Assembly (NCBI GenBank): GCA_964399055.1
Contig: CAYNPJ010000004.1
Coordinates: 11,158 to 75,157 of the forward strand
Source of the DNA: an uncultured Ignavibacteria bacterium
Lineage (GTDB): Bacteria; Zixibacteria; MSB-5A5; DSPP01; RBG-1
Direction: 5' to 3'
DNA: 64,000 nt
Under the pieces are notes generated by a model, which was not told where the DNA came from, did not search any database, and saw nothing but the letters and a program-made list of their open reading frames with translations. Within the stretch, counting starts at the first letter, position 1, and each line of letters begins with the position of its first letter. Shown one piece after another: positions 1-37,739 of the stretch. The position numbers and the translations under genes were made by a program.

Positions 1-33
1 TAATCCGACCACCAGGCTGGTTTTTGCCTTCAT
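1..33 (-). CDS. 5' end of an unknown gene running off the window (MKAKTSLVVGL...)
   Basis: ATG at 33-31 on the minus strand, preceded by GAGGTG SD; sigma-70-like promoter upstream; only 11 codons visible. Confidence 0.3.
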   Translation of the reverse strand, partial: MKAKTSLVVGL

Positions 34-115
34 AATTTCACCTCAGGCGGGGTTAAAATTGAACTTTGTCGACAAAAGACGGAGTTTTTATTACCGACTT
101 CCTCCAACTATCAAG

Positions 116-143
116 AAAATAGCCAATTTCGAGAAACTGTCAA
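116..143 (-). promoter_or_regulatory. sigma-70-like promoter TTGACA-N16-TATTTT for the gene leaving the window at position 1
   Basis: Reverse complement of 138-143 is TTGACA and of 116-121 is TATTTT, with a 16-nt spacer. Confidence 0.35.
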
Positions 144-235
144 CAGATATTTTCTGACTCTTAGCCGATTAATCCCTTGCATTACGTCAGGTTAACAATA
201 GCAAAAGTCTTCTTAGTCGGCTTAATACCAACACC

Positions 236-1474
236 TTAAGGTCTCACGACACCTAACTTCCTGAGCAATCTATTCTTACGATAATAAAGGCTTTCCAAAA
301 GTCCGTTTCCTGCCTGTAATGACAAGGAGACATTCAAATTATCAATCGCCCGCTCTACCAGTTTAAGCGCCTGCGGATACTGTCTAATGCGGTGCTCGTA
401 AAATTTGGCTAACTCCAAATAGGGCTCCAGGCAGAATCTATTATTCTCTGTGATTATTTGCCGCCAGATTGCTTCAGCCTTATCCCACTTTGCAGTCCGC
501 TTGTAGAGTCTTCCCAGCCAGAGAAGGCTGTCCATGAAAGAATCCTCGGAAGAGCCTTTCTCCTGAGATTTTTCCCAGCATAGAACAGCTCTCTCATACT
601 GGCCGGAGTAATAGAATTGCCGGCCCAAACTGAGCAAGTCCTCCGGATGTAATATTTCCAATTTTTCTGGTCTTTCCAAAATCTCACATAGATGAGCCAA
701 TAGACCAGCCATGGAGATAATGTCATATGCGTTATGCTCAGTAATAAGTTTAATTTTTTCTCTTTCCCCGCTGCGCAGGAAATCAAAATATGCCTGCGGT
801 ATCAGATAGCTGGGAATATCGAATTCTCTTGCCACTCCTAATATTTCTCTCTCTAAATTAGAGAGGCTGCAATCCTTGACTCTTCTCTTCCACACCCGCC
901 GGGCCGGAAAGAGCAAATCTAAGTGGCCCTCAAATTCCAGAGAGGCCTTGATGCGATTGAGTATGTATCTGGTCTTAAGAATGGGGATGTCGTAACCTTT
1001 GCCGTTATAGGTAACAATGTATGGATAGCTGGATAGCAACTCCGACAAATCGGCCAGCAAAGCTCTTTCCTCCCCATAATCCCGCATGAAAAACTGCCTC
1101 AAAACAAATTTATCAAGAGCAAAGTAGCCGACCCCCACCAGAAAGGGATGAGTGCCGGAGCCGCCCGCCAGGCCGGTAGTTTCGGTGTCTAAAAAGATGG
1201 TTTTGCTCAAATCTATTTCCTGCGAAAGCTGAGTTTTGGCTAAAAGAGTGATAGACCCGGAATCAGCGCTCAACAGGTCAGAAATAACCACCGACCCATG
1301 CTGGTAGGATGGTCTGTATTCCTTCTCAATGAGTACATATTCCCCCTTGGAATTAGAAATCACTCTACCATTCAGGAAATCAACCAGCGAAGAGTCCTTT
1401 TCCACCCTCTCTTTCTTTTCAGTTCTAATTAATCCCAGGCTCTTCAAACTTTGCAAGCGTTCCTGTAAATCCAT
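236..1474 (-). CDS. RNase H-like (DEDD-type, YprB/PF13482-like) predicted 3'-5' exonuclease fused to C-terminal TPR repeats
   Basis: FLDTETTGL exonuclease motif in the N half; TPR-like repeats (WLGRLYKRTAKWDKAEAIWRQ..., AKFYEHRIRQYPQALKLVERAI) in the C half; 5-nt gap to the upstream gene suggests an operon. Confidence 0.6.
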   Translation of the reverse strand: MDLQERLQSLKSLGLIRTEKKERVEKDSSLVDFLNGRVISNSKGEYVLIEKEYRPSYQHGSVVISDLLSADSGSITLLAKTQLSQEIDLSKTIFLDTETTGLAGGSGTHPFLVGVGYFALDKFVLRQFFMRDYGEERALLADLSELLSSYPYIVTYNGKGYDIPILKTRYILNRIKASLEFEGHLDLLFPARRVWKRRVKDCSLSNLEREILGVAREFDIPSYLIPQAYFDFLRSGEREKIKLITEHNAYDIISMAGLLAHLCEILERPEKLEILHPEDLLSLGRQFYYSGQYERAVLCWEKSQEKGSSEDSFMDSLLWLGRLYKRTAKWDKAEAIWRQIITENNRFCLEPYLELAKFYEHRIRQYPQALKLVERAIDNLNVSLSLQAGNGLLESLYYRKNRLLRKLGVVRP

Positions 1475-1478
1475 ACTT

Positions 1479-4412
1479 TTATCTCTTGAATTTATTTAGA
1501 ATTAATGCCAATTTCCCAGTTATGAAAGGGTGCTTCTCCTTCTCTTTCAATAGATTCAACTTGATTGCGTTTTCCATATTATCCGACCCCCCTAAAGCCT
1601 CAATTGTTGTTCCTTTCCCTCTCCAATTTTCTCTGTCATAAACCTGCCACAAGTAGTTACTAGCTGCCTGAGTTTTAGTTTTCCCCAGAGCTGATATGCA
1701 CAGAAGTCTCTTATCTCTTAACAGAGAATTTTCATATTCCCATTTCAGTTGCCCAACTGCTTTCTCTCCCAATTTACCTAATGCCTCCACTGCCGCCATC
1801 AGCACCGAGTAGTGCGGATCATCCAGAGCATAAATAAGATAATCCACTCCCCGCTCATCCTGCAGTTCCCCTAATGCATAGACCGAAGATTTTCTGACCA
1901 CTTCAACAGAATCAGATAACGCAAAAGCAACCCAGTTAAATGCGGAAGTATCTTTGGCATTTCCGATGGCCGTCAGAGCATATCCCCGCACCTGATAATC
2001 AGGATGATTGAGGATATCTATTAAATAGGGAACAGCGACAGTATCTTTCAGCTCACCCAATACCCGGCAGGCGTTCCTGAGCTTCCAATTATCTTCATTT
2101 TGCAATTCGCCTAATACTGAAGCGACCGGCAAAGTTGCCTCCGGAATTTTGCCTAATATATCCACCAGGGTTTGAATCTCTCTGGCATCTCTGGAATCAA
2201 GTTTCTTAACTAAATAAGGAATGGAATTTTCCTTCATCTCTCTCAGAGCCTGTTTTGCCGGCTCTACCCTATCCAAATGCTCCACATTAATGGCAGTTGC
2301 CTGGATAAAGAGTGAATCCACCAGCACTTTGAGGGATTCATTCTCCGGCTGAGTGGCAGTTTTCATTGCCTTTTCCCAGTCAGCCATATGAAAGGCCGGA
2401 AGGCCTGGCATTTTGAAATGGCGCTCAGTTGTGGATATTGTCTCAGGCTCAGAATAATATTCAGCCAAATCTTCTTCCTTCAAATCCAGCCCTATCCCCC
2501 ACTTTGAGCCAATCGACCACCAGGAGCCTTCTGAGCCATTGCCGGAATAATTATCATTTCCTTTCAAATCTAAAAACAAACCTATCGAGCCAAATTCCCT
2601 TCTGGGATTGCCATAGCCTCGAGTGTTGGATTTCTCTTTAGCGTAATAGCCATCATCCCCGGCCTGGTCAATCAAGATTCCGAAGCCATTTGCATTCCCT
2701 GCCCCTTGGGATAAGCCGTTGGCGTAATAATTATCATTTCCAGCTTTATCTAACAAAATCCCGGCTGAGTAATCATGCCCGCAACCCTGACCAACGCCAT
2801 TGACGCGATAAATGTCATCCCCGGCTGCATCGACTAAAGTGCCTAAAGTCATGTGCGTGCCGCAGCCCTGCGCATACTGAAAGCAGGAGTAGTAGTCATT
2901 TCCTTCTTTATCATACAGCCCTCCCCAGCCCCACCAGTAAGAGCTTCCCTGGCCGAAGATGTCCGCATTGTAGATGTCATTGCCGGAGTAGTCGAAGAGT
3001 AAACCAATACCGCCGGACATATAGGGCCTGATGCCATAGGCAAAACCCTGGGAAAGTGAGAGGTAGTGGTCTTTGTATCTTAAAATGTCCTTGTATTTCC
3101 CTCCGGCGAAGTAATTGTCGCTGCCCGATCTGTCAATCAACATCCCGCAGCCAGCCACAAAGCCGAAGCCCTGAGAGAAAAGCGCGCCATTATATGTATC
3201 CGTGCCTTCCAAATCAATCAATAGTCCCAGACCCCACCCTCCTGCTCCCTGCGTATAAGTGTCTCCGAAATATTTATCATCCCCCTTTCTGTCTATTAAT
3301 ACGCCGATTCCAAACAAACCTGAGCCCAGACTGAAATTCTTACCTATGTATGTATCATTTCCCTCTTCGTCAATGAGAATACTCCCACCAAAAAATCCCG
3401 AGGCAATGGCAAAATCAGACTTCGCTCTGTATATATCATCTCCGCTCAGATCAAGTATTGTTTGCATGCATACCAGAGAATCGTATTCCAGTTCATACAC
3501 GTCATCACCACCCAAATCAATAATCAAGGCAGGACTGCCATAGTAATAAGAACTACCGGTTCCACCAATTAAGATATCACCTATTTTAGTCTTGCCATGA
3601 AAAATGATATCATTCACTTCTTGCTTATTTTCCTCTCTCCACTTAGATCTGTGCGCCTGTTCTTCATTTTCGAAATTTATTGCGGCCTCACCAAGATAAG
3701 CACTTACAAACCACATCCAATGTATCCAATCGAATTTTTCACGGAACTTTGAAATTTGTTTGGCCAGTTCTTCCTCATACTTCTGATTCTGGTCCAGTTT
3801 CTCTGGTGTCTTAAATTGATCATTCACATCTTCCAGAAGTAAAATTGGGGCATTATGCCTTAAGAACATAAAAAGAGAGTCCTGTGGAGGTCGAACATTC
3901 CACACATGTTGCATATATAGAAATAATCGCAGTATGTAATTTGTATCCTTTCCCGTAACCTTCTTGAGGATCTTGTTAGCTTTAAAGAGGTCAGGATACT
4001 CACGCTCAGAGGGCACTCCTTCTAACTCTGTTACATCCCAAGGGTGAGGTTTACGCCTGGGTATTATCTCATTATATTTTTCATGCAAATCTAGTGCTGG
4101 TTCCCAAATAGGATGCGTTAGAAATAGGTCTAACCTTATGTCAGTCATACCACCAAAATTGTAAACAATATCCTTTAGTTCCAGTAAACTCGATATAGTG
4201 AATCCCGGTGTGTGCATAAGGCTATCCATAAGTTTTAGCCTGAAATCGTCCACCTCCGTATAATCATTCCTGAAAGTCAAATCCGCAGGCTTCATCAAAA
4301 GACATTTCAGCCCCAGAGCCAAGGCCGAATCAACTTGAGCGTTATACTTGCTCTGCGCAGACGCAATTCCAAAAAGAAATAGACCGAGCAGAGCAATCGA
4401 CACTTTCCTCAT
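1479..4412 (-). CDS. large secreted multi-domain protein: signal peptide, novel ~270-aa N-domain, ~15 tandem beta-roll/RTX-like 'G-x-L-x-D-x-x-G-N/D-D-x-Y' repeats, C-terminal PBS-lyase-type HEAT repeats
   Basis: ORF 1479..4490 opens with a TTG; an internal ATG at 4412 gives the classic signal peptide MRKVSIALLGLFLFGIASAQS; repeats such as LIDLGGDDVY, LIDEEGNDTY, LIDRKGDDKY, LLDKAGNDNYY, LIDQAGDDGYY; HEAT-like repeats (HPDYQVRGYALTAIGNAKD, DPHYSVLMAAVEALGKLG). Confidence 0.7.
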   Translation of the reverse strand: MRKVSIALLGLFLFGIASAQSKYNAQVDSALALGLKCLLMKPADLTFRNDYTEVDDFRLKLMDSLMHTPGFTISSLLELKDIVYNFGGMTDIRLDLFLTHPIWEPALDLHEKYNEIIPRRKPHPWDVTELEGVPSEREYPDLFKANKILKKVTGKDTNYILRLFLYMQHVWNVRPPQDSLFMFLRHNAPILLLEDVNDQFKTPEKLDQNQKYEEELAKQISKFREKFDWIHWMWFVSAYLGEAAINFENEEQAHRSKWREENKQEVNDIIFHGKTKIGDILIGGTGSSYYYGSPALIIDLGGDDVYELEYDSLVCMQTILDLSGDDIYRAKSDFAIASGFFGGSILIDEEGNDTYIGKNFSLGSGLFGIGVLIDRKGDDKYFGDTYTQGAGGWGLGLLIDLEGTDTYNGALFSQGFGFVAGCGMLIDRSGSDNYFAGGKYKDILRYKDHYLSLSQGFAYGIRPYMSGGIGLLFDYSGNDIYNADIFGQGSSYWWGWGGLYDKEGNDYYSCFQYAQGCGTHMTLGTLVDAAGDDIYRVNGVGQGCGHDYSAGILLDKAGNDNYYANGLSQGAGNANGFGILIDQAGDDGYYAKEKSNTRGYGNPRREFGSIGLFLDLKGNDNYSGNGSEGSWWSIGSKWGIGLDLKEEDLAEYYSEPETISTTERHFKMPGLPAFHMADWEKAMKTATQPENESLKVLVDSLFIQATAINVEHLDRVEPAKQALREMKENSIPYLVKKLDSRDAREIQTLVDILGKIPEATLPVASVLGELQNEDNWKLRNACRVLGELKDTVAVPYLIDILNHPDYQVRGYALTAIGNAKDTSAFNWVAFALSDSVEVVRKSSVYALGELQDERGVDYLIYALDDPHYSVLMAAVEALGKLGEKAVGQLKWEYENSLLRDKRLLCISALGKTKTQAASNYLWQVYDRENWRGKGTTIEALGGSDNMENAIKLNLLKEKEKHPFITGKLALILNKFKR

Positions 4413-4531
4413 AGAAGGACCTGCCGAAAATAATCCCCCTCCTGAACAAATGTCAACTTTTTTCTCTAAAAAGCAAAAGCCCTCTGACAATCGCCAGAGG
4501 GCCCGCCCTCCTATACTTAGCCCACCCCTCT

Positions 4532-5968
4532 CTAAGTCAGCTGATATTTAGCCATTCTATCTCTTAGAGTGTTCCTGCTCACCCCTAAAATCTTGGCCGA
4601 GCGCAGTTGATTGGACTCAGTCTGCTTCAAAACTTTTTCTATCAGCGCTTTTTCTAAGGCCGAGGAGATGTGGTCATAGATATGCCCGTCGGAATTGTCC
4701 ATAATCTTGCCGAAGACCGGTTCTAAAACTTCGGAAAAAAGCTTGTAGTAATCCTGCTGAATCTTCTGGAAGTCAAAGGGGATTCTCTCCCTGGTGTCGG
4801 AATACAGAGGGAAATGCTCCGGCGCCAAGATTTCTCCCTTGCACATCACCACTGCGGTGTGAATGTTGTTCTCTAATTCGCGCACGTTGCCGGGCCAGTG
4901 GTATCTGCCCAGCATCTCTTGAGCTTCCTTGGAGACGGACCTTATCTCTTTCCCCACCTGCGGGGCGTATTTTTTGAGGAAGTGTTTGGCTAAAACCGGT
5001 ATGTCGACTTTTCTTTCCCTCAAGGGAGGTAAATATATGGAGACCACTTTCAGACGGTAGAACAAATCTACCCTGAATTTGTTGTCTTTTATCAGCTCGA
5101 CTAAACTTTTATTAGTGGCAGCGATTACCCGGACATCCACCTTTATGGTCTCATTCCCCCCCACCCGCTCGAACTCCTGTTCTTGAAGGACGCGTAAGAC
5201 TTTGCTCTGGGTGACTAAGGACATGTCGGCGATTTCGTCCAAGAAAATAGTGCCATTGTGGCATTGTTCGAATTTTCCAATCTTGCGGGCATAGGCGCCG
5301 GTGAAGGCCCCTTTTTCATGGCCGAATAATTCTGATTCAAGTAAAGTCTCTGGCAGGGCCGCGCAGTTGACTGACAAAAAAGCCTTGTCGGCCCGGCGCG
5401 AATTGCGGAAAATGGCCCGGGCTACTAATTCTTTGCCAGTTCCGGATTCCCCCATGATTAATACTGAAGCGTCGGTTTTGGCAACCTGTCCAATTAATTT
5501 GGCTATCTCTACTATTTCCGGAGACTGGCCGATTATTTCATTTTCGCTAAACTCTCCGGGTTTGCCTCCGTTAGGGGCACCAGGCTTGCCCAGGTGTTTT
5601 TCCGAGAGGGCTTTGCGGACTTCACCAGCCACCTTTTCTAAGGTAAAAGGCTTAGTGATATAATCAAAAGCCCCCTCTTTCATAGCTTCGATGGCCGATT
5701 CAGTGGAGACGTAGCCGGTCAGGATAATGACCGGGACCTTGCCGTCAGTGGTCTTTATCTTTCTTAAGACTTCCAAGCCGGACATTCCCGGAAGATTCAA
5801 GTCTAAAAGAACTACGTCGGGCTGAAGTTCCGGTAGTTTGGCTAAGGCATCTTCCCCTTTTTCAAAGGAGAGCAGGCTGAATTCAGGAGGGGCTAAAAAC
5901 TGGGAAAGGGTCCCGCTTACTGCCGGGTCGTCATCAATCAGAAAGACCTTGGGAGTCTGCAGAGTCAT
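4532..5968 (-). CDS. sigma-54-dependent Fis-family response regulator (NtrC-like enhancer-binding protein), orphan with no adjacent kinase
   Basis: Receiver domain (VFLIDDDPAV...LLDLNLPGMSG); Pro/Gly-rich linker (GKPGAPNGGKPG); AAA+ motifs ESGTGKELVARAIF and GAFTGA; C-terminal HTH (KILGVSRNTLRDRMAKY). Confidence 0.9.
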   Translation of the reverse strand: MTLQTPKVFLIDDDPAVSGTLSQFLAPPEFSLLSFEKGEDALAKLPELQPDVVLLDLNLPGMSGLEVLRKIKTTDGKVPVIILTGYVSTESAIEAMKEGAFDYITKPFTLEKVAGEVRKALSEKHLGKPGAPNGGKPGEFSENEIIGQSPEIVEIAKLIGQVAKTDASVLIMGESGTGKELVARAIFRNSRRADKAFLSVNCAALPETLLESELFGHEKGAFTGAYARKIGKFEQCHNGTIFLDEIADMSLVTQSKVLRVLQEQEFERVGGNETIKVDVRVIAATNKSLVELIKDNKFRVDLFYRLKVVSIYLPPLRERKVDIPVLAKHFLKKYAPQVGKEIRSVSKEAQEMLGRYHWPGNVRELENNIHTAVVMCKGEILAPEHFPLYSDTRERIPFDFQKIQQDYYKLFSEVLEPVFGKIMDNSDGHIYDHISSALEKALIEKVLKQTESNQLRSAKILGVSRNTLRDRMAKYQLT

Positions 5969-6005
5969 TCTAAACTTTTAATCGGTATTTTTGATGAATT
6001 TTTAA

Positions 6006-6015
6006 CTGCCGGCAG
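6006..6015. promoter_or_regulatory. perfect 10-bp palindrome CTGCCGGCAG about 40 nt upstream of the sigma-54 regulator start; candidate operator
   Basis: Palindrome read directly; flanked by TTAA on both sides. Confidence 0.25.
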
Positions 6016-6089
6016 GCTTAAAAATCGTGAATTTTAGCCCTTTTAAAGCAGGAGAGTATGCAATTGATTTCGCATGTCAATCGGAATGT

Positions 6090-6127
6090 CTGTATAAAAC
6101 AGAAAGCGAGCCCTTTTGAGCTCGCTT
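6090..6127 (-). terminator. rho-independent terminator after PEP-CTERM gene 1
   Basis: Minus-strand reading AAGCGAGC-TCAAAAGG-GCTCGCTT (8-bp stem) followed by TCTGTTTTAT. Confidence 0.6.
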
Positions 6128-6158
6128 GTACCATTAAAAGCTGTTCTATATAAGTTAG

Positions 6159-6881
6159 TTACTTCTTACGTCTTAATCTGGCAAAACCGGCTGCACCTAA
6201 GAGGCCGCTGCCAAAGAGAAATAGAGTGGCCGGTTCAGGCACTTCAGGCGGAGTCTCACACAGGTCGGTGCCGTAAACAAATTTGACGTTCCTGATTTTG
6301 GCGCTGGGGTCAAAATAGGAAGAAATGCCGCTCAAGGTGAATACTACCTGATTCTGGATTAGAGCGTTACTTCCAGTAACCGCGGCATTCCCGGAAAATA
6401 AATTATCTGCGGCAGAGGTGATACCGTATTGCAATCCGTCAGGCGAATCAGGGCCTTGCAGATTAGGGCCCGGGAACCTGTCCCCTGACCCGAACAGGCC
6501 AAAGCCGGCAGAGCTTATGCCGTAGCGACCCAATCCATAGTTAGGAAAGCTGGAACTGTACCGAAAAGCCCACTCTCCGCCTACGTTGCCTCCATTAGAA
6601 GGGCCGTAGAATACAGATGAGCCTCCGCCCAGAGCGGCAGAGACCCTGCTTAGAGATGGATTGTACCTAATGTCGAAGAATACCGCGGTAAGCACTTCAT
6701 TGGGTGCCGTGACGTCAGCTGAGGAAGTGTTAGTCAGGGTGATTTGCAGATTTCCACTGACCACAGCAAATATAGCGCTGGCCGCCAGACTGCCACTGGA
6801 CCAGTTGTAAGTGAAAGGCACAGCCAAAGCCGTACCGCTGATTAATAGGGAAAGTAAAATCCCTGCTTTTATGAGCCTCAT
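6159..6881 (-). CDS. PEP-CTERM domain secreted protein (exosortase substrate)
   Basis: N-terminal signal peptide; C-terminal VPEPATLFLFGSGLLGAAGFARLRRKK (PEP motif, TM helix, basic tail); AGGAGG RBS. Confidence 0.9.
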   Translation of the reverse strand: MRLIKAGILLSLLISGTALAVPFTYNWSSGSLAASAIFAVVSGNLQITLTNTSSADVTAPNEVLTAVFFDIRYNPSLSRVSAALGGGSSVFYGPSNGGNVGGEWAFRYSSSFPNYGLGRYGISSAGFGLFGSGDRFPGPNLQGPDSPDGLQYGITSAADNLFSGNAAVTGSNALIQNQVVFTLSGISSYFDPSAKIRNVKFVYGTDLCETPPEVPEPATLFLFGSGLLGAAGFARLRRKK

Positions 6882-7019
6882 TCTCTCCTCCTGCTGGTTA
6901 GCATCCTGTTTATCTTTTTTTTGTTTCAGGGAGCAAGACTCCGCTTGAGTCCCGCTCTTTTTGGTTGTCTGTCTTAGTTATAAATCCTCATGCCATCCTG
7001 TGGCGTAAATCTTCCAGAC

Positions 7020-7658
7020 TTACTTTTTCCGGCGAAGCTTCGAAAATCCGGCTGCGCTTAGGAGTCCGCTGCCTAAGAGTAACATGGTGGCCGGCTCAGG
7101 AATTTCAGGTGTACGTCCTGGACCATACCAAGCAGTGTTTCCGTCAATCTCTTCTCTGTAGTAACCCCAGTCGAGGTGAACCAGGTATTTGGTAGTGGCT
7201 GGATTCAAATTGCATCCAGTGCCATTGAAGTCTGCCACCAGAACATTGGTGCAATCCCCTTTATGAATATAGTCGACTGGTGACCCGGTATGGGTTCCGA
7301 AAACACCTTTGGGTCTTTCGTAGCCGCCGTTGAAGTCCCAGTTGGCTATGGTAGTAACGCCGGCTGTCGTACCCCACCCAGGAACCGCAGCTTCCAAATC
7401 TGGTCCTTGATTACCGTTCTCCAAATAGACCGCAAGGGCTTTAATTCCACCGACGTTAATGATACCGCCAATTGGGGCTCCTGCATCAACGCAGACCTGG
7501 AAGGTCCAGACATTGGCAGGACCCTGAGTGCCCGTTACTGAAACAAAGCTCAAAGTCCCTGCTGAAGCGTTCAGACTTGGCCAGGGGTCAGCGTTTACGG
7601 TTGCTGCTGTCAAAACCAAAACCAGTCCCAGGATTGCCAGCAGAGTTAACTTCTTCAT
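7020..7658 (-). CDS. PEP-CTERM domain secreted protein (exosortase substrate)
   Basis: Start moved to the internal ATG at 7658 (MKKLTLLAILG..., signal peptide) preceded by AAGGAGG; C-terminal IPEPATMLLLGSGLLSAAGFSKLRRKK. Confidence 0.88.
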   Translation of the reverse strand: MKKLTLLAILGLVLVLTAATVNADPWPSLNASAGTLSFVSVTGTQGPANVWTFQVCVDAGAPIGGIINVGGIKALAVYLENGNQGPDLEAAVPGWGTTAGVTTIANWDFNGGYERPKGVFGTHTGSPVDYIHKGDCTNVLVADFNGTGCNLNPATTKYLVHLDWGYYREEIDGNTAWYGPGRTPEIPEPATMLLLGSGLLSAAGFSKLRRKK

Positions 7659-7719
7659 TGATTCCTCCTTAAAGATTTGAATTGGTTTCAAGTTATAATT
7701 CTTCATGCAGAATTAAATC

Positions 7720-7737
7720 AGCAACCGTTATGCCAAT
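7720..7737 (-). promoter_or_regulatory. sigma-54 (RpoN) promoter, -24 TGGCAT / -12 TTGCT, driving the PEP-CTERM genes
   Basis: Reverse complement of 7721-7737 is TTGGCATAACGGTTGCT, matching TGGCAC-N5-TTGCW in spacing and the GG/GC dinucleotides; about 60 nt upstream of the ATG at 7658. Confidence 0.7.
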
Positions 7738-7769
7738 GGCCAGAACTAACCTTCAAAGAGCTAACCTAT

Positions 7770-7782
7770 TGTCATTCTGACA
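7770..7782. promoter_or_regulatory. inverted repeat TGTCA-N3-TGACA, candidate enhancer (UAS) for a sigma-54 activator
   Basis: Perfect IR about 35 bp upstream of the -24 element; a second IR CTGTC-N9-GACAG lies at 7888-7906. Confidence 0.35.
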
Positions 7783-7887
7783 GTTAATTTAAACAACTTA
7801 AAGGCTGACCCCATGCCATTTGTTTGTTTTCCCGACAACCTAAAAACTCATCCTAAGATAAACTCATACAATACATTATATTCCAAC

Positions 7888-7906
7888 TGTCAGGAAAACC
7901 GACAGC
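7888..7906. promoter_or_regulatory. inverted repeat CTGTC-N9-GACAG, second candidate UAS in the divergent PEP-CTERM/exosortase intergenic region
   Basis: Read directly; shares the TGTC/GACA half-sites with the 7770-7782 repeat. Confidence 0.3.
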
Positions 7907-8036
7907 TCTTAAAATACCTCTTCATCTCACTTCAGATTTGTTGCAAGAAGATGCATGATTTACTGAGCAAATCCTCTTGATATGGACTGACTCTTCTCTT
8001 GCCATTTCCTTCCGATAGAATTAATTACAACCGTTG

Positions 8037-8897
8037 ATGGAGACAAAGACTCTGGTTTTTAAACGGCTCTTACGACCCGAAATCCTGTTAATTGGGTTAG
8101 TCCTGGCCTTAATCTATTTTCCTGTCTTTGTAGAGCTCTGGGACGACTGGGAAAGGGATTCTAATTATTCCCACGGCTTCTTAGTGCCTTTGGTCTCCTT
8201 GTTCCTGCTCTGGAAAAAGCGTCGGGAGCTAAGCCAGATTCCTGCTAAACTCTCACCTTTCGGCTTGGCCATCATTGCTGCCGGGCTCTTTCTGCTCATA
8301 GTTGGAACTGCCGGAGCTGAGTATTTTTCGGTCCGACTCTCCTTTGTGGCTCTGATCTTTGGACTGGTCTGGTACTTTGGGGGGGATAAACTGGCAAAAA
8401 GCGCTGCGGTGCCAATCTGGTACCTGGTCTTGGCCATTCCAGTTCCTTATGTGATTTACTTTGCCATGGCTTTTCCCCTTCAGCTTCTGGCCACTAAAGC
8501 GACTGTGGTCCTGCTCCACCTGATGGGCCTACCTTCCATCCGGCAGGGGAACATCATACATCTTCCGGGCTACAGTCTGGAAGTAGTGGAAGCCTGTTCC
8601 GGCTTGCGCTCTTTAATGTCCCTCTTAGCCCTGTCCGGCGTCTATGCCTATTTAACCCAGAAGACTAAACTGAGAAAATTCATTCTCTTTGCCTCTGCGG
8701 TACCGATTGCTCTGGTTGCCAATATCTTTCGAATCATAATCACTGCCTTAGGAGCTTACTTAATCTCACCTAAAATGGCTGAGGATTTCCTGCATGAGCT
8801 TTCCGGCCTGGTGGTCTTCATCATATCTTTTATCTGTCTGTTCATCTTAGGGGAAATATTAAAGCGCATCGGGGCCAAGAAACCGGCTGTCTCTTGA
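8037..8897 (+). CDS. exosortase (PEP-CTERM-processing transpeptidase, Xrt family)
   Basis: Polytopic membrane protein; conserved active-site context EVVEACSGLRSLMS (ACSG Cys motif) and IANIFRII Arg motif; adjacent to two PEP-CTERM genes; the ORF opens at TTG 8034 but the ATG at 8037 is used here. Confidence 0.85.
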   Translation: METKTLVFKRLLRPEILLIGLVLALIYFPVFVELWDDWERDSNYSHGFLVPLVSLFLLWKKRRELSQIPAKLSPFGLAIIAAGLFLLIVGTAGAEYFSVRLSFVALIFGLVWYFGGDKLAKSAAVPIWYLVLAIPVPYVIYFAMAFPLQLLATKATVVLLHLMGLPSIRQGNIIHLPGYSLEVVEACSGLRSLMSLLALSGVYAYLTQKTKLRKFILFASAVPIALVANIFRIIITALGAYLISPKMAEDFLHELSGLVVFIISFICLFILGEILKRIGAKKPAVS

Positions 8898-9859: not shown

Positions 9860-9975
9860 AACGCTAGATTTTCAATAGCATCAATTCGCTTTCGAGCATT
9901 GTGCAACTCCTTGCACATTCTCTGCTAAACCCTACAGGTTTAAACCCCGACCTCGGATTCTTTGTCACAAAATCT

Positions 9976-10097: not shown

Positions 10098-10113
10098 TGG
10101 CAGTAGTTTTGCT
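10098..10113 (+). promoter_or_regulatory. sigma-54 promoter TGGCAG-N5-TTGCT upstream of the sugar transferase
   Basis: Plus-strand TGGCAGTAGTTTTGCT with exact GG-N10-GC spacing; lies inside the nominal ORF 9901..11127, whose N-terminal ~75 codons are low-complexity and AT-rich, so it is probably a leader. Confidence 0.6.
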
Positions 10114-14393: not shown

Positions 14394-16514
14394 ATGTCAG
14401 TTCTCTTTGCCGTAATCGCCAGCCTGACCTTAATCTTCGCCGTAGTAGTACTCCTCCGCAATCCTAAAGAGCTTTCCTTTTGGGCTTTTTTTCTCACCGG
14501 CCTATTCTGGGTCTCAATTTTAGCCGGCATTCTGTTTTCACTGCGCTGGGAGTTTCCTCTCTGGGGCTCTGCTCTTCTGGCTCTGGGGATTAGTTTCCTG
14601 CCCTCCCAGGGGACTTTTTTCAGTTTCTGCTTTGCCAGAGAAAATGTCCGGGAACTGTTAAAGCGCTGGCAGTGGTTTCTGGGGCTGACTTACGCCTTCA
14701 GTATAGTTTTTTTCATCTTAGCCCTGCAGGGGAAAGTTTACGCCTTAGGAGTCGGGGAAGTCGAAGGAAAACTGCTATTGGCCTATACCAATCCGGGACG
14801 GCTCTTTCTGGCTTTCCTCTTCTTGACTACTCTGGTCAGCTTAGTCAATTTGGAAAACACTTATCGTCTATCCAAGGGTAAAGAGCGCTCCCGCTTAAAA
14901 TTGCCTCTCACTCTGTCGGTCTCTGCTTACGCCTGGTTGATTTATTCTCTGACCAGTTCCTTCGTATTGGGCTATCTGCAATACTGGGTTTTGCAGGTGG
15001 GTTTTCTCTTAATCTTGGCGGCTCTGATTTCAACCGGCGTTTATCAGCTCAAACAGAGCACTCATCTGCCGGCAATCTATATGGGGCGGAGACTGGCTTA
15101 TTCCTCAGCCGCTTTTGTGCTGGTGGGACTCTACTTAGTCTTCATCGGCCTGGTGGCCAGTTTCATACCCAAACTGGGCGGGAATTTGCAGATTTTCATC
15201 TCGGTCTTAGCCGCCCTGATGGTCTTGATTGTACTGGTAATCTTGGCCTTCTGGGAGACCTGGAGAAAGAGGCTGGAGCATTTGCTGGAAAGGCTTCTCT
15301 ATCCGGGTAAATTCGATTTTCGCGAGGAGTGGAAGAGATTTTCTGAAAATATCTCGGCTCTGCTGGATTCGGGTGAAATTCAAAAAGAGACCGACAAGGT
15401 CATCCGGGAGAATTTGCGGGTCGACCAGTTGGCAGTATATTCCCGCACCAGCAGGAACAGCGATTTGAGAATCACGCATCACTCCTCAGGCAACTATGAC
15501 CAGCCGCCGGCCCTGCCGCCGGAGGACCCTTTCTGGGGCTGGCTTCTGCGCTATGGGGAGACAGTAGAGAAGAGGCAGATAGAAAGGCTGTTGGAAACTT
15601 ATGCCAGCGGCTCTCAGATTAAACATATTTTAGAGCAGACTAAAGGTGAGGTTATAACTCCCTTGATCGCCAACCGGGAGCTGGAAGGGATGATTATCCT
15701 CTCAGACAAGGAAGAGCAGGAGGCTTATACTAACGAAGATTTCGATCTGTTAAATGCCATCTCCGGACAGGCCGCTCTAGCCCTGTTGAATGCCCGGGTA
15801 GGGCAGGAACTGATTTTAAGCAAGGAGATGGAGTCCTTTCACAAATTTGCGGCCTTTGTGGTTCATGACCTGAAGAATTCCATCTCCATGCTCTCTATGC
15901 TTTTGGCCAATGCCCAGGGGAATCTGAATAACCCTCAGTTTCTGGCCAGCGCCTTGGAGACGGTGGACCAGGCAGTCAAAAAAATGAAGACCCTGGCAGA
16001 TAAACTCTCCTCCCCGCCGGAAGGCAGCACCTTAGTGTTAAGGCAAACGGATTTGAATCAGGTCTGGCAGATGGCGGCCCGGGATTTAAAATTGGAGCTG
16101 CTGCCGAACATAAAAGTGGAGTGGCAGTTAGGCGAGTTACCTCTGGTCAACTGCGACCAGGTTCAGTTGGAGAAGGTCTTTCAGAATCTGTTTTTGAATG
16201 CGGTGGAGGCTATGCCTAAGGGAGGTTCGATTAGAGTTACCACTCAATTCTTTGAGAATCAGAATCATCTTCCGGAAGTACGGATGAGCGTCCGGGATAA
16301 CGGAGTCGGCCTAAGCCCGGAATATCTGCGCACCCGTTTATTCCAGCCCTTTGCCTCCACCAAGAAGTCCGGCTTGGGCATAGGTCTGTTTCAGTCTAAG
16401 GAGATTGTTGAACAACACGGAGGCAGAATCTGGGTGGAGACCTGCGAGGGCAAAGGAACCGTTTTTTACATCACCCTGCCAGTGAAAGCAACAGCAGCAC
16501 CGGTAAACAAGTAG
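14394..16514 (+). CDS. prsK: PEP-CTERM system sensor histidine kinase (PrsK family)
   Basis: About 8 N-terminal TM helices, a GAF-like domain, HisKA (FAAFVVHDLKNSIS) and HATPase_c (GLGIGLFQSKEIVEQHGGRIWVE); immediately upstream of the sigma-54 regulator. Confidence 0.8.
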   Translation: MSVLFAVIASLTLIFAVVVLLRNPKELSFWAFFLTGLFWVSILAGILFSLRWEFPLWGSALLALGISFLPSQGTFFSFCFARENVRELLKRWQWFLGLTYAFSIVFFILALQGKVYALGVGEVEGKLLLAYTNPGRLFLAFLFLTTLVSLVNLENTYRLSKGKERSRLKLPLTLSVSAYAWLIYSLTSSFVLGYLQYWVLQVGFLLILAALISTGVYQLKQSTHLPAIYMGRRLAYSSAAFVLVGLYLVFIGLVASFIPKLGGNLQIFISVLAALMVLIVLVILAFWETWRKRLEHLLERLLYPGKFDFREEWKRFSENISALLDSGEIQKETDKVIRENLRVDQLAVYSRTSRNSDLRITHHSSGNYDQPPALPPEDPFWGWLLRYGETVEKRQIERLLETYASGSQIKHILEQTKGEVITPLIANRELEGMIILSDKEEQEAYTNEDFDLLNAISGQAALALLNARVGQELILSKEMESFHKFAAFVVHDLKNSISMLSMLLANAQGNLNNPQFLASALETVDQAVKKMKTLADKLSSPPEGSTLVLRQTDLNQVWQMAARDLKLELLPNIKVEWQLGELPLVNCDQVQLEKVFQNLFLNAVEAMPKGGSIRVTTQFFENQNHLPEVRMSVRDNGVGLSPEYLRTRLFQPFASTKKSGLGIGLFQSKEIVEQHGGRIWVETCEGKGTVFYITLPVKATAAPVNK

Positions 16515-16523
16515 TTTGAGAAA

Positions 16524-17885
16524 ATGGACCGGGATAAGATTCTCATTGTAGACGACGAAGAGGGAATCCGCACTCAACTTGCCTGGGCTCTGTCTGCGGA
16601 ATACCGAGTCTTGCAGGCTGACTCGGCAGCGCCAGCCTTGGATATAGTCCGGGCAGAGAACCCGAATCTAATCTTGCTGGATTTAGCCTTAAGCACCACT
16701 CAGGCCGAGCCGGATGGATTGGAACTCTTGGGAACTTTTCTGGAGAAAGACCCCTTTTTGAAAGTCATTATGATCACCGGCCATGATGAAAAGCCCAATG
16801 CTTTGGAGGCCATTAAAAAGGGGGCTTACGACTTTTACGCCAAACCCATCGACTTAGATGAAATTAAAATCATCATAAAGCGGGCTCTCTACATCCAGAA
16901 ATTGGAAAAAGAGAACCGGCAATTAGCTGAAGAGTTAGAGAGTAAACAAAAATTTGAGGAAATCATTGGCACCTCAGAGAAGATGGAGCAGATTTACCGG
17001 ACCGTTTCCAGGGTTGCCCCCACTGATGCCACAGTTCTGGTAGTGGGAGAATCCGGCACCGGCAAGGAACTGATAGCCAGAGCCATTCACAGCCTGTCAC
17101 CCCGTAGTTCCAAGCCTTTTGTCACCATCAACTGCGGGGCTATTCCGCCCAATCTTTTGGAATCCGAGCTCTTTGGTCACGAAAAGGGAGCCTTTACTGA
17201 CGCCCACATCCAGCGCAAGGGGAGGTTCGAAATGGCTGAAGGCGGGACAATTTTCTTAGATGAAATCGGCGAACTCTCTCTGCCCCTGCAGGTCAAGATT
17301 CTGAGGTTTTTGCAGGAAAAAGAGATTGAACGAGTGGGAGGCCGGGAGCCAATTTACGTGGATGCCAGGGTTCTGGCGGCGACAAACAAGGCGCTGCTGG
17401 AAGAGGTCAAGCTGAAAACCTTCAGAGAAGACCTTTATTACCGGCTCAGTGTAATTACCATTAATCTTCCCTCTTTAAAAGAGAGGGGTCAGGACATATT
17501 GCTTTTGGCCCACACCTTTTTGAGCCGTTTTTCGGCAGAATACAACAAAAGCAAGCTGACTTTTAGTCCTGCGGCCGAGAGGGCCCTTTTAGCCTATCCC
17601 TGGCCCGGCAACGTGCGCGAGCTGGAGAACAAAGTCAAACGGGCGGTAATTTTAAGCCTGGGAAATAAGATTACTCCCTATGATTTGGGACTGGAACAAG
17701 AGTCCGGAGGCAAGAGGCCAACCCTGCAGGAGCTGCGGGAGCAAGTAGAGAGTCAGTTCATTCAGGAAACGCTCCAGCGCCATCAGGGGAACGTCACCAA
17801 CGCTGCTAAAGAATTAGGGGTTAGCCGGACTACTCTTTATGATATCATGGAGAAGTACAAGATTAAAAGAGAGTCTTTGGATTAA
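16524..17885 (+). CDS. prsR: PEP-CTERM-box sigma-54-dependent response regulator (PrsR family)
   Basis: Receiver domain (ILIVDDEEGIR...LLDLAL); AAA+ motifs GESGTGKELIARAIH and GAFTDA; C-terminal HTH. Confidence 0.85.
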   Translation: MDRDKILIVDDEEGIRTQLAWALSAEYRVLQADSAAPALDIVRAENPNLILLDLALSTTQAEPDGLELLGTFLEKDPFLKVIMITGHDEKPNALEAIKKGAYDFYAKPIDLDEIKIIIKRALYIQKLEKENRQLAEELESKQKFEEIIGTSEKMEQIYRTVSRVAPTDATVLVVGESGTGKELIARAIHSLSPRSSKPFVTINCGAIPPNLLESELFGHEKGAFTDAHIQRKGRFEMAEGGTIFLDEIGELSLPLQVKILRFLQEKEIERVGGREPIYVDARVLAATNKALLEEVKLKTFREDLYYRLSVITINLPSLKERGQDILLLAHTFLSRFSAEYNKSKLTFSPAAERALLAYPWPGNVRELENKVKRAVILSLGNKITPYDLGLEQESGGKRPTLQELREQVESQFIQETLQRHQGNVTNAAKELGVSRTTLYDIMEKYKIKRESLD

Positions 17886-34612: not shown

Positions 34613-36826
34613 TCAAGCCTGAGATGACAAGGGCGCAGTCGCCTTATGCCTGGCTACCAGGGCAGATATCTTGGCCTCTAAGGGGTCCTTCTTGAGGAAG
34701 GAAAAGAGGTTTTTGTGCATCTCGTGTAAATATTGTTCCAATTGGGCAATAATGGCCGGGCTTGCTTTGTGGCAGAAGTAATTTAAAGCTAACGCCCTGA
34801 CTTCATCCTCGGGCTTGATCTTAAAATTAAACCCTTTTCTACTTCTTCCGGTCAGAAGACTGAGGAAGAAATCCTCCGCATATTGACATTCTAACTGGGA
34901 TAGCGCCTGGCAGACTGATTTCCTGTCCTCAGCGTAGTCGGAAAAGTGATTAATCAGCATCTGTACTGCTCTGGTATCTGCGCCCTCTGCGACAGACTCT
35001 ATTGCCTCCTGGCGAATTTTAGGGTCGGTATCCTTCAGGTAAAGATAGAGAATCACCTTGGCTTCCTGTTTCAGGGGATGCAGGCCTAAGTATTTTATCG
35101 CCTCCGCACGAATATCTGAATCCGGGTCGTTTTTGAGCCTTCCCAAGAGCTGTAGGGCCTGTTTCTCTTCTACTAAAGTCAGTATCCGGGTAATGAGTAA
35201 CATCTTCGGTTTGTCAGCTGAGGAAATGGCAGAACTGCTGCCTGTCGATTCTCCCAGCCTGACATTTATCAAATGGTCAAAATATGACAGCAGGGCCTCT
35301 GGCATAGACCTGAGCAGATTTACCGCTTGCTCTGTTTGCAGCTGACTATAATGGCTCCAGCCGGAGAGAATTTCCTCAATAACCGGTTCGGTTGCCAGTA
35401 GCTTGAGGAGAGCCTGAGCTTCCCCGGACTGGGCCCGGTCCGAAGACCTTAGCCAGTCCTGGAGCAACTGACTGGCAGTCTCCTGATTGCCCAGAGCCGT
35501 GACCAGTTCCAGAGAGGCCTTTTGAACCTTTTCTGAAAAGACCACTTCTTTGTGACAGCGGGATCTGACCCCCAGGACGATTTCTTTGACAGGTCTATAA
35601 TCCTTTTTACGGATGAGCCAGCGGGTCAAAGGAAGCGCAGTCTTAAGATATTCTAAATAAAGGGGCTCGCTCAACTTGACCTCTCTGATGCGCTGGACAG
35701 TTACCTCTTTAATATGCTCTATCTCCCGGAGCCGATTAGCGCTGAGAGCTTGGTTCAGGATGGCCTGTAAGAGCAGGCTGGCGGTTTGCCTTGATTCGCT
35801 CCGGGGAGACTCTATTTCTGCAATTAGCCGCTCAATGGCCAGCTCTGAGAGCTTATCGTCTTCTAAAGTCAGCAATCTCCGGGCCATTTCGTTCAATTTC
35901 TGAGAATCACAAGTCTCACTCTTCAAGGCCGAAGAGAAATCCTCTACAATCTTCTCGCTCTTTTCCCGGCGCTCCTGCAAAGTCTTCTTCAGAATCTTCT
36001 GATTCAAGAGCCCGTAGCGCTCAGCAATTATCTCTAATTGGGGAAAGAGATTCTTCAATTCCTGGGACTGAAGCGCCGCCAGGACTGTTTCCAGGTCTTC
36101 TTTCTTCTGGACTTCCTCGGTCAAGACTTTCTCCAATTCCCGCTTAATCTTGCCGGAGATTAAGCTGAGCAGGTTTTCATCTGAGAGCTGCGAGATCTCC
36201 TGTTCTAATACGGCCACGATTTTATCCTCGGGCAGTTCTATCCGATACCTGTTTTTCAGGGCTTCCGCAGTACCCGGGCCGCCGAACAATATCTCCTTCA
36301 GGATTTGAGGATTTTCTTTCAATGTTGCTGCGAACTGGCTCTTCAGGTCTATCTTTAGTTTTTCGGTCTTGCTGATTACTTCCTGCCTCTCGGAGACCTC
36401 TACGTAATGGACTTTGTTGGCAACTATGGAACTGATACCCTCCCCATTTAAGAATTCCTCCAGAGCCTGATGATAGTGCCGGTCCATTATCCGCCTGGCA
36501 TAGTAATTCAGAAAAGATTTAAACTCTTCTCCGGAAACGCTGGATTTAAACTCGACCGACTTTACCGCGGCCTGCTGGAAAAGCTGGAAGAAGACATTCT
36601 GAGTGAAATCCTCCGGTATGGTCTCTCCGTTGATGACAAATTTATTCTCCTTGACCGACACCACTAATCTCTGGTCGCGGGACAAGATGTTTTGTAAGAG
36701 CTCAAATGGCCCGGCCGCTGCTACACTCTGGGTAGGATGGCCGGGCGGATAAAAGGAGAATTTTTTAATGGCGGCGATGGTCCCCTTGAGCCAAGATGAA
36801 TAGAGCTTTACTTTCTCTTCGGACAT
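34613..36826 (-). CDS. HEAT-repeat (PBS-lyase-type) protein, unknown function
   Basis: C-terminal HEAT repeats (DPDSDIRAEAIKYLGL, DTDPKIRQEAIESVAEG); alpha-helical throughout. Confidence 0.5.
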   Translation of the reverse strand: MSEEKVKLYSSWLKGTIAAIKKFSFYPPGHPTQSVAAAGPFELLQNILSRDQRLVVSVKENKFVINGETIPEDFTQNVFFQLFQQAAVKSVEFKSSVSGEEFKSFLNYYARRIMDRHYHQALEEFLNGEGISSIVANKVHYVEVSERQEVISKTEKLKIDLKSQFAATLKENPQILKEILFGGPGTAEALKNRYRIELPEDKIVAVLEQEISQLSDENLLSLISGKIKRELEKVLTEEVQKKEDLETVLAALQSQELKNLFPQLEIIAERYGLLNQKILKKTLQERREKSEKIVEDFSSALKSETCDSQKLNEMARRLLTLEDDKLSELAIERLIAEIESPRSESRQTASLLLQAILNQALSANRLREIEHIKEVTVQRIREVKLSEPLYLEYLKTALPLTRWLIRKKDYRPVKEIVLGVRSRCHKEVVFSEKVQKASLELVTALGNQETASQLLQDWLRSSDRAQSGEAQALLKLLATEPVIEEILSGWSHYSQLQTEQAVNLLRSMPEALLSYFDHLINVRLGESTGSSSAISSADKPKMLLITRILTLVEEKQALQLLGRLKNDPDSDIRAEAIKYLGLHPLKQEAKVILYLYLKDTDPKIRQEAIESVAEGADTRAVQMLINHFSDYAEDRKSVCQALSQLECQYAEDFFLSLLTGRSRKGFNFKIKPEDEVRALALNYFCHKASPAIIAQLEQYLHEMHKNLFSFLKKDPLEAKISALVARHKATAPLSSQA

Positions 36827-36991
36827 AAAATGTCTAACTTGGATTATTCATCCGTCCATAGGTATATCGGCAGTTACGGTAACTTAATAAACGCTAAAAC
36901 GTTACAGAGCTTATCCGATTGAACTGTTCCGAGTAATTGGGCAAAAGAGAATAAGTAGTAAGAGCGGTTTGAGATATGACAGATAAATAAC

Positions 36992-37693
36992 TTAACGGGC
37001 CGTGATTCTCACCACAATTATGCTGATTTCATAAAGGATGTATAGCGGGATTCCTAAGAGAAGCTGGGAAAAAACGTCCGGCGAGGGGGTAAGAACAGCG
37101 GCTAAAATTAATATAGAAACAAAGGCATATTTCCTGCCTTTGGCCAAGGAATACGAGCTGACGATGCCTAATTTCCCCAAGAAAAAAGTGATTATCGGCA
37201 ATTGGAAAACCAGGCCGAAGGCCAAGACCATCCAGGAGACAAAGCTGATGTAATCTCCGATCTTAATCAAAGGGAGAAGTTTCTCAGTCTGATAGCCTAA
37301 CAGGAACTTGATGCCTAAGGGGAGGACTAGAAAGTAGCAGAATACTACTCCTCCGAAGAAAAATAGAGTAGAAACAGAGACTACCGGTATGACATATCCG
37401 ACCTCTCTTTTGCTCAGGCCCGGGACGATAAACTGCCAGAGCTGGTATAGAATTACGGGAATTGAAGCGATAAGTCCCAGAATCAAAGAGAGTTTAATCC
37501 GGACCGCAAAAGCCTCAGTTGGCGCTGTAAAATAGACCGTCCCCACCGGCCGGGAGAGATAATCTATTATCTGTTCGGAAAAAAAGTAAATCGCTATCGA
37601 GAATATCAGAATCGAGGCAATCGATTTTATCAGTCTCCGGCGCAGCTCCTCTAAGTGGTCGAGGAAGCTCATCACTTTGGGGTCAGAGGGCAT
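36992..37693 (-). CDS. tatC: twin-arginine translocase subunit TatC
   Basis: MSFLDHLEELRRRL start and six TM helices typical of TatC. Confidence 0.85.
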   Translation of the reverse strand: MPSDPKVMSFLDHLEELRRRLIKSIASILIFSIAIYFFSEQIIDYLSRPVGTVYFTAPTEAFAVRIKLSLILGLIASIPVILYQLWQFIVPGLSKREVGYVIPVVSVSTLFFFGGVVFCYFLVLPLGIKFLLGYQTEKLLPLIKIGDYISFVSWMVLAFGLVFQLPIITFFLGKLGIVSSYSLAKGRKYAFVSILILAAVLTPSPDVFSQLLLGIPLYILYEISIIVVRITAR

Positions 37694-37739
37694 GGACTTA
37701 AGGGAAATTTATATGGCAGGCTGAAACTTGAGAGCTCAA

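Follow-up and report, generated by a model that had tools for sequence, protein, structure and literature searches.

Positions 236–5968 of the window (the whole analysed stretch, 64 kb of contig CAYNPJ010000004.1 from an uncultured bacterium of the Zixibacteria) contain genes for an NtrC-family response regulator, a large exported protein composed of a β-solenoid and HEAT repeats, and an exonuclease with tetratricopeptide repeats (TPR). This region probably consists of separate units that are neighbors in Zixibacteria rather than of one system. In the reading we favor, with a probability of roughly 0.6, a stand-alone regulator of neighboring surface and exopolysaccharide (EPS) promoters is followed by a two-gene unit encoding the solenoid-HEAT protein and an MrfB-type exonuclease, and this order reflects phylum-level synteny, with no sign of a common function. 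A preliminary description had presented the three genes as an operon and as a single arrangement that could not be assigned to a known system. Neither proposal is borne out: (i) a terminator and a promoter part the regulator gene from the large gene; (ii) the exonuclease is of the MrfB/YprB type; and (iii) the large protein is a fusion of what are usually two adjacent genes.

The three open reading frames (ORFs) all lie on the minus strand and are co-directional:

236–1474, minus strand: ORF of the exonuclease with TPR, 412 aa
1479–4490, minus strand: middle ORF as listed, 1003 aa counted from a TTG codon
4532–5968, minus strand: ORF of the regulator, 478 aa

Two PEP-CTERM genes, correctly described before as standing beside the regulator gene, are located directly upstream of it on the same strand. 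An XrtA-type exosortase gene, a creatininase-family gene, and the gene of a Bac_transf priming glycosyl-transferase are divergent from the PEP-CTERM genes. Domains were assigned with Pfam and NCBIfam models, and gene orders were counted over 69 testable related loci. L-numbers denote related loci; L001 is the closest relative of the window locus, and L003, L004, and L006 belong to the RBG-1 clade.

The evidence that divides the region into units lies in the segments on either side of the regulator gene, which contain the following features:

4477–4504, minus strand: 12-bp intrinsic terminator after the regulator gene, GGGCCCTCTG-gcga/ttgt-CAGAGGGC, then TTTTGCTTTTT
4427–4456, minus strand: sigma-A-type promoter TTGACA-N18-TATTTT(CG), 10/12 matches, identical in L001
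6104–6127, minus strand: intrinsic terminator after the second PEP-CTERM gene, the upstream limit of the regulator transcription unit

The TTG codon at 4490, from which the middle ORF had been counted, falls in the loop of the terminator (4504–4477) and is not kept in L001. By contrast, the ATG at 4412 opens a Sec signal peptide, MRKVSIALLGLFLFGIASA followed by Q, and agrees with the N-termini of the homologues. Because the TTG is spurious and the true start is the ATG at 4412, the gap between the regulator and the solenoid gene is 119 nt long (4413–4531), not 41 nt as had been reported. The TTGACA-N18-TATTTT promoter that had been placed in the 41-nt gap does exist on the minus strand (4456–4427); it is located in the 119-nt gap, downstream of the terminator. 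The gap is 93% identical to its counterpart in L001 (9881–10000), compared with 64–87% for the flanking proteins, and the terminator stem carries compensatory substitutions in L001. L003, L004, and L006 have a different terminator after the regulator gene and a TTGACA-N18-TAGCTTGG promoter at the same position ahead of the solenoid gene. The terminator and the conserved promoter thus support the earlier suggestion that the large gene is expressed independently. About 30 nt immediately after the regulator stop codon (AGAGGGGTGGGCTAAGTATAGGAGGGCGG) are also conserved relative to L001, with no role assigned; an Rfam scan of positions 1–8100 returned nothing meaningful in the conserved gap.

Because terminators lie on both sides of it, the regulator gene is its own monocistronic unit. 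The stop codon of the solenoid-HEAT gene is separated from the exonuclease gene by 4 nt, as previously noted, with no terminator between; in L001 and L076 the two are 1 nt apart, and in L073 they overlap by 11 nt. The 4-nt spacing without a terminator suggests co-transcription, and the solenoid-HEAT and exonuclease genes probably share a transcript from their own sigma-A-type promoter. The exonuclease gene is perhaps translationally coupled to the gene that precedes it.

We regard it as very unlikely that the regulator, the large protein, and the exonuclease constitute one operon or regulon under the enhancer-binding protein. A co-directional regulator of this type (61–87% identity) does stand immediately upstream in the window and in L001, L003–L006, L011, L076, and L077. 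Nevertheless, the strong conserved terminator and the sigma-A-type promoter behind it intervene between the regulator and the large gene, the solenoid gene is not preceded by a sigma-54 -24/-12 element, either in the window or in the loci with this regulator type, and most loci with the solenoid-HEAT-exonuclease trio are without this regulator. Enhancer-binding proteins are known to act solely with sigma-54.

The gene-neighborhood analysis that had been proposed as a check revealed conservation at two levels: the closest clades share the regulator-led order, and the solenoid-HEAT-exonuclease trio is present in 37 of the 69 testable loci, covering most deep Zixibacteria lineages. The full order of regulator, solenoid(-HEAT), exonuclease, and a cargo protein of the type IX secretion system (T9SS) occurs in L001, L003–L006, and L011, with the L001 copy including exosortase and PEP-CTERM genes as well. 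L076 and L077 keep the regulator, solenoid, HEAT, and exonuclease genes and have no match to the T9SS-cargo gene. In a derived clade (about 25 loci), the order is TatC-solenoid-HEAT and the exonuclease is missing; in the window, the SAM_HAT-NrdR-TatC context is retained at 36992–38965 and is followed by an unrelated protein. The loci outside Zixibacteria and the distant fusions contain neither the exonuclease nor the regulator, and the neighbors of the distant solenoid-HEAT genes are unrelated. Conversely, L086 contains the exonuclease and T9SS-cargo genes and no solenoid gene. Because the solenoid-HEAT pair occurs after TatC without MrfB, because its distant neighbors are unrelated, and because L086 has MrfB without the solenoid, the solenoid-HEAT protein and the exonuclease would share a transcript without depending functionally on each other.

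The regulator, which we designate EBP-A, is a complete NtrC-family sigma-54 enhancer-binding response regulator. Its Pfam domains are Response_reg (E=4.2e-29; phospho-acceptor Asp56 within LLDLNLPG), Sigma54_activat (E=2.4e-71; Walker A motif GESGTGKE at aa 173 and GAFTGA at aa 220), AAA_lid_14, and a Fis-type helix-turn-helix (HTH) of the HTH_8 family (E=5.9e-9, aa 438–475), with a GKPGAPNGGKPG linker at aa 127. The domains and motifs uphold the receiver, AAA+, linker, and HTH organization given in the preliminary description. That description had also called the regulator an orphan, which holds only locally: no histidine kinase gene flanks it, but the closest, that of PrsK, which is partnered with PrsR, is located in the same exosortase locus 8.4 kb away. 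The top NCBIfam models for EBP-A are NtrC and AtoC, and PEP_resp_reg is third; because its score against the PrsR model TIGR02915 (401.3 bits) falls short of the cutoff (502.6), EBP-A is not PrsR. It shares with PrsR the receiver-AAA+(GAFTGA)-HTH_8 build and the location in an exosortase/EPS locus beside PEP-CTERM genes with a sigma-54 promoter, and differs from it in the score below the cutoff, in the presence of a genuine PrsK/PrsR pair elsewhere in the locus, and in having no adjoining kinase. EBP-A falls in a clade of its own, distinct from PrsR and from the pilin-linked enhancer-binding proteins described below.

The promoters that EBP-A could serve lie upstream of its gene, together with the PrsK/PrsR pair:

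7720–7735, minus strand: sigma-54 -24/-12 promoter TGGCATAACGGTTGCT upstream of the PEP-CTERM gene 7020–7706, conserved in L001
7942–7955: candidate enhancer (upstream activating sequence) TGCA-N6-TGCA, 220 nt (start to start) upstream of the PEP-CTERM sigma-54 promoter
9902–9915: candidate enhancer TGTGCAA-N4-TTGCACA (TGCA-N6-TGCA), 196 nt ahead of the sigma-54 promoter of the glycosyl-transferase gene
10098–10113, plus strand: sigma-54 promoter TGGCAGTAGTTTTGCT ahead of the true Bac_transf start
14394–16514, plus strand: PrsK histidine kinase, TIGR02916, 334.7 bits (cutoff 300)
16524–17885, plus strand: PrsR regulator, TIGR02915, 571.3 bits (cutoff 502.6)

A scan of the first 20 kb of the window for sigma-54 promoters identified these two as the only intergenic ones. 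The TGCA-N6-TGCA palindrome occurs twice in the 64-kb window, against 0.86 copies expected by chance, and both copies are situated 196–220 nt upstream of the two sigma-54 promoters. The composite of palindrome and sigma-54 promoter (spacing 191–220 nt) is found at both promoters of L001 and at the Bac_transf gene of L003, L004, and L011, in which Bac_transf is directly upstream of the regulator. In a survey of 1.35 Mb of loci, the composite was present in all loci with this regulator type and sufficient upstream sequence except L076, and its only occurrence outside such loci was in L020, upstream of the homologue of the T9SS-cargo gene. The listed ORF starts at both promoters are over-extended: the Bac_transf ORF from GTG 9901 spans the candidate enhancer and the sigma-54 promoter, and ATG 7706 of the PEP-CTERM gene precedes the Met of the signal peptide at about 7658.

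PEP-CTERM genes are classically sigma-54-dependent under PrsK/PrsR (PMC1569441). In Proteobacteria, the PrsR box has 17 nt, ends in TTTACA, and lies about 63 nt upstream (PMC1569441); the candidate enhancer here, TGCA-N6-TGCA about 200 bp upstream, differs in both motif and distance. With PrsK/PrsR in the same locus as EBP-A, the locus holds two sigma-54 activators. We infer from the arrangement of these sites that EBP-A, or alternatively PrsR, drives the two surface/EPS promoters. In the proposed mechanism, EBP-A would receive phosphate from PrsK or an unlinked kinase and would bind the TGCA-N6-TGCA sites, activating the sigma-54 promoters of the PEP-CTERM and priming glycosyl-transferase genes.

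In a rival reading, EBP-A is a second output of PrsK and governs PEP-CTERM and EPS expression with or instead of PrsR, which would make it part of the PEP-CTERM regulatory system and not an independent orphan. This is a fair possibility, though less likely than not. The co-location with PrsK/PrsR, the classical dependence of PEP-CTERM genes on sigma-54 and PrsR (PMC1569441), the third rank of PEP_resp_reg (401 bits) among the models for EBP-A, and the sigma-54 promoters and enhancer sites flanking the regulator all argue for it. It is weakened by the score of EBP-A under the PrsR cutoff and its clustering away from PrsR, and by the RBG-1 clade, in which the regulator of this type adjoins Bac_transf and has no exosortase, PEP-CTERM, or PrsK gene within 10 kb.

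The product of the middle gene is organized as follows:

1479–4412, minus strand: exported β-solenoid-HEAT fusion, 977 aa from ATG 4412, predicted Sec signal peptide at aa 1–20
2484–3611, minus strand: β-solenoid core, aa 268–643
3014–3106, minus strand: solenoid insertion AGGKYKDILRYKDHYLSLSQGFAYGIRPYMS, aa 436–466, about 30 residues
1482–2375, minus strand: HEAT (PBS-lyase-like) repeat domain, aa 680–977

The earlier account of a 1000-aa secreted β-roll/HEAT protein is right as to the export and the HEAT repeats; the protein is, however, 977 aa long and not an RTX nonapeptide protein, as no Pfam match to that repeat (GGxGxDxUx, HemolysinCabind) was obtained for it. The first approximately 650 residues match no Pfam family, and HEAT_2 is found at the C-terminus. 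Within the solenoid, the sequence contains 12 D-x-x-G-x-D-x-Y rungs with a period of 26–27 residues. The AlphaFold2 model (mean predicted local distance difference test score (pLDDT) 70) consists of a helical N-domain, a 13-rung β-solenoid (aa 268–643), and a confident HEAT solenoid. The exported product would combine three parts, the N-terminal helical domain, a solenoid resembling a Ca2+-dependent β-helix, and the HEAT domain.

A search of PDB sequences with the solenoid profile yielded no relative. The closest solved fold to the modeled solenoid is the Ca2+-dependent β-helix of the Marinomonas primoryensis antifreeze/ice-binding adhesin (PDB 3P4G), and "β-roll" is fair as a structural analogy at the level of the model, not as membership of the RTX family. 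The differences from this adhesin are as follows: (i) a rung of the antifreeze protein comprises 19 residues, whereas the D-x-x-G-x-D-x-Y rung here has 26–27; (ii) no sequence-family relationship was detected between the two; (iii) unlike adhesins, the solenoid is very highly conserved; and (iv) HEAT always accompanies it, as a partner or within a fusion, and an insertion of 30 aa in it is invariant. The insertion (aa 436–466) is nearly invariant over 105 homologues, is modeled at very low confidence, and is a candidate active or binding site; many of the residues in this loop are His, Lys, Arg, or Asp. The extreme conservation, together with His, Lys, Arg, and Asp residues that do not vary, suggests that the solenoid, partnered by HEAT, is an extracytoplasmic enzyme or ligand-binding protein and not an adhesin that evolves fast.

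The HEAT domain matches HEAT_2 and HEAT_PBS, and its fold is like those of CpcE/CpcF and alphaRep. Compared with the PBS-lyase-type HEAT proteins (CpcE/CpcF, NblB, and YibA), it is exported and is found outside any phycobilisome context; it scores far under their equivalog cutoffs, so the likeness exists only at the repeat level. Homologues of the solenoid are abundant (>2,000 matches at about 50% identity, mostly of 654 aa), and the family comprises 3,388 clusters at 50% identity (E<=1e-3). Relatives occur in 467 species-level genomes, mostly of Zixibacteria, with some in Eisenbacteria, Stahlbacteria, and Cloacimonadota. Most genomes have HEAT as a gene of its own directly behind the solenoid gene, as in L002, L003, L004, and L073, in which each of the two encodes a signal peptide; the two are neighbors in nearly all of 80 related loci, and HEAT adjoins the solenoid gene downstream in about 67 of the 69 testable loci. 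Fused forms of 900–1000 aa are common among the distant representatives, which also include PDZ-solenoid variants, one of them from Nitrospinota. The large protein is thus the fused form of a solenoid and HEAT gene pair that belongs to the Zixibacteria core and is also widespread outside this phylum. A 737-aa HEAT-containing protein encoded after TatC (34613–36826) was considered as a paralogue of the solenoid protein and was ruled out by BLAST and hhalign.

The distal gene of the two-gene unit could be assigned to a known family:

236–1474, minus strand: MrfB/YprB-family DEDDh 3'-5' exonuclease with C-terminal TPR, by homology to PDB 8UN9

The core (aa 44–263) matches MrfB (PDB 8UN9) with E=5.5e-36, and RNase_H_2 (PF13482) is detected with E=2.7e-36. 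In MrfB, the DEDDh set is D107, E109, D172, H258, and D262, and the wedge is Leu113 (PMC11194089); D96, E98, D162, H247, D251, and L102 of the window protein align with these residues. The catalytic residues, the loss of which would have spoken against the earlier domain assignment, are thus all in place. TPR_2, TPR_6, and TPR_14 match aa 278–357, each slightly under the cutoff, the LapB TPR structure aligns to aa 280–377 (E=3.7e-4), and homologues are annotated as "YprB with RNaseH-like and TPR domain". The mitomycin C repair exonuclease of Bacillus subtilis, MrfB (YprB), itself has a C-terminal TPR domain (PMC11194089). Therefore, the domains of the reported YprB-type exonuclease-TPR fusion are confirmed, but the "fusion" is the normal architecture of the family and not a novel one. 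The window protein resembles MrfB in the homologous core, the DEDDh set, the Leu wedge, the C-terminal TPR, the long N-terminal extension before β1, and the overall length of about 410 aa.

The gene context differs from that of MrfB. In other phyla (L087 and L088), homologues 40% identical over the full length are encoded 3 nt downstream of an MrfA-type helicase gene, and the MrfA-MrfB pair is flanked by an AP endonuclease gene and RadC. The window exonuclease, by contrast, is not beside an MrfA/YprA helicase and is the distal gene after an exported solenoid/HEAT protein gene; a tblastn search of the window and 85 related loci with an L087 MrfA sequence as the query found no MrfA helicase. Unlike the solenoid and HEAT proteins, the exonuclease has no signal peptide. 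It is presumably a cytoplasmic MrfB-family DEDDh 3'-5' DNA exonuclease that acts in DNA repair, as far as homology indicates.

Several observations weigh against a run of independent units. The trio persists in deep lineages, in which the MrfB-like proteins are 31–39% identical to that of the window and the start and stop codons abut or overlap, and gene-order conservation of such depth is often a sign of a functional link. The absence of a local MrfA leaves room for a different role of the exonuclease. An enhancer-binding protein near the solenoid gene occurs in two non-orthologous forms, the second being found in many loci 2.6–3.5 kb upstream of that gene, and this recurrent coincidence is not fully explained. 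The TGCA-N6-TGCA sites could belong to PrsR instead of EBP-A, and L076 has a regulator of this type without a palindrome-promoter composite. In addition, the solenoid part of the model is only moderately confident, given the mean pLDDT of 70 for the whole model.

A rival reading is a Zixibacteria-specific module in which the solenoid/HEAT proteins and the MrfB-like exonuclease would link the envelope to DNA processing, for instance in the uptake or handling of extracellular DNA or in envelope-coupled repair, with the TPR domain recruiting a partner other than MrfA. The trio in 37 of the 69 testable loci with its abutting or overlapping codons, the absence of MrfA from all the loci searched (the window and 85 related ones), the type IV pilin genes directly upstream in many loci (with one weak ComP_DUS match), and a ComEC gene adjoining the solenoid-HEAT pair in L002 are consistent with such a module. 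We nevertheless consider it unlikely, as the predicted compartments differ (signal peptides on the solenoid/HEAT proteins and none on the exonuclease), the pair moves and survives without the exonuclease in a large clade and in all the loci outside Zixibacteria, L086 has the exonuclease and not the pair, and close exonuclease homologues are partnered with MrfA in a DNA-repair setting. Slightly less probable is a scenario in which the MrfB-type exonuclease of Zixibacteria became uncoupled from MrfA and was recruited into a conserved module with an exported Ca2+-β-solenoid and HEAT; separately, the solenoid-HEAT proteins would be a large, uncharacterized extracytoplasmic enzyme family. If true, the recruitment would constitute an undescribed link from the envelope or surface to a cytoplasmic exonuclease, possibly handling incoming or extracellular DNA beside type IV pilins. 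Separate units, with a stand-alone EBP-A ahead of the solenoid-HEAT and exonuclease genes, remain the reading we prefer.

The second form of enhancer-binding protein is a PilR-like receiver-AAA+-HTH regulator, encoded upstream of the solenoid gene in L073 (7219–9868), L056, L052, L057, L071, L074, L075, and L054. Next come 1 or 2 type IV pilin genes, all with sigma-54 promoters, in an arrangement similar to that of PilR and pilA, and an HDOD/HD protein is encoded after the exonuclease gene in the Zixibacteria loci of the pilin type. No type IV pilin motif was found in the window. Orthology between EBP-A and the pilin-linked regulator was considered and rejected, as the two fall in separate clades.

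Downstream of the exonuclease gene, at the edge of the window (1–143, minus strand), a gene starting at about position 33 (MKAKTSLVVGL...) runs off the window. It stands in place of the 944–963-aa FlgD_ig/Por_Secre_tail T9SS-cargo protein of the relatives, to which it is presumably homologous; a promoter of its own, TTGACA-N16-TATTTT, lies at 143–116. The L020 homologue of this edge gene is the one that bears the TGCA-N6-TGCA and sigma-54 composite. In L076, the region 3308–8137 upstream of the window-type regulator encodes a 390-aa Mur_ligase_M protein, followed by ORFs of 154 and 389 aa. The ORF sizes resemble those of a poly-γ-glutamate synthase set (PgsB/C/A-like), a resemblance for which the Mur ligase match is the sole support; if true, L076 would be another exopolymer locus beside a regulator of the window type.

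Elsewhere in the window, positions 34613–38965 (minus strand) encode SAM_HAT, NrdR, and TatC and then the 737-aa protein, a cytoplasmic HEAT-repeat protein; the next two products are a 929-aa fusion of Peptidase_MA, TolB-propeller, and Omp85 and a protein similar to BamB. Two paralogous genes for the large subunit of methylmalonyl-CoA mutase (50775–52355 and 58415–60094, minus strand) belong to a cluster with acyl-CoA dehydrogenases, thiolases, and biotin carboxylase/carboxyl-transferase, which represents ordinary metabolism unrelated to 236–5968.

For annotation, the analysis corrects three over-extended ORF starts (TTG 4490, ATG 7706, and GTG 9901), divides the apparent operon into its true transcription units, and gives the "RNase-H-like/TPR fusion" a name as an MrfB-family DNA-repair exonuclease. 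Neither the solenoid-HEAT family nor its linkage to MrfB overturns present knowledge. The candidate sites upstream of EBP-A outline a putative regulon, open to testing, of a second enhancer-binding protein in a PEP-CTERM/exosortase locus. The solenoid-plus-HEAT proteins are of value for discovery as a very large, highly conserved exported family without a Pfam model, and within Zixibacteria, this pair is linked across the phylum to an MrfB homologue that has no local MrfA.

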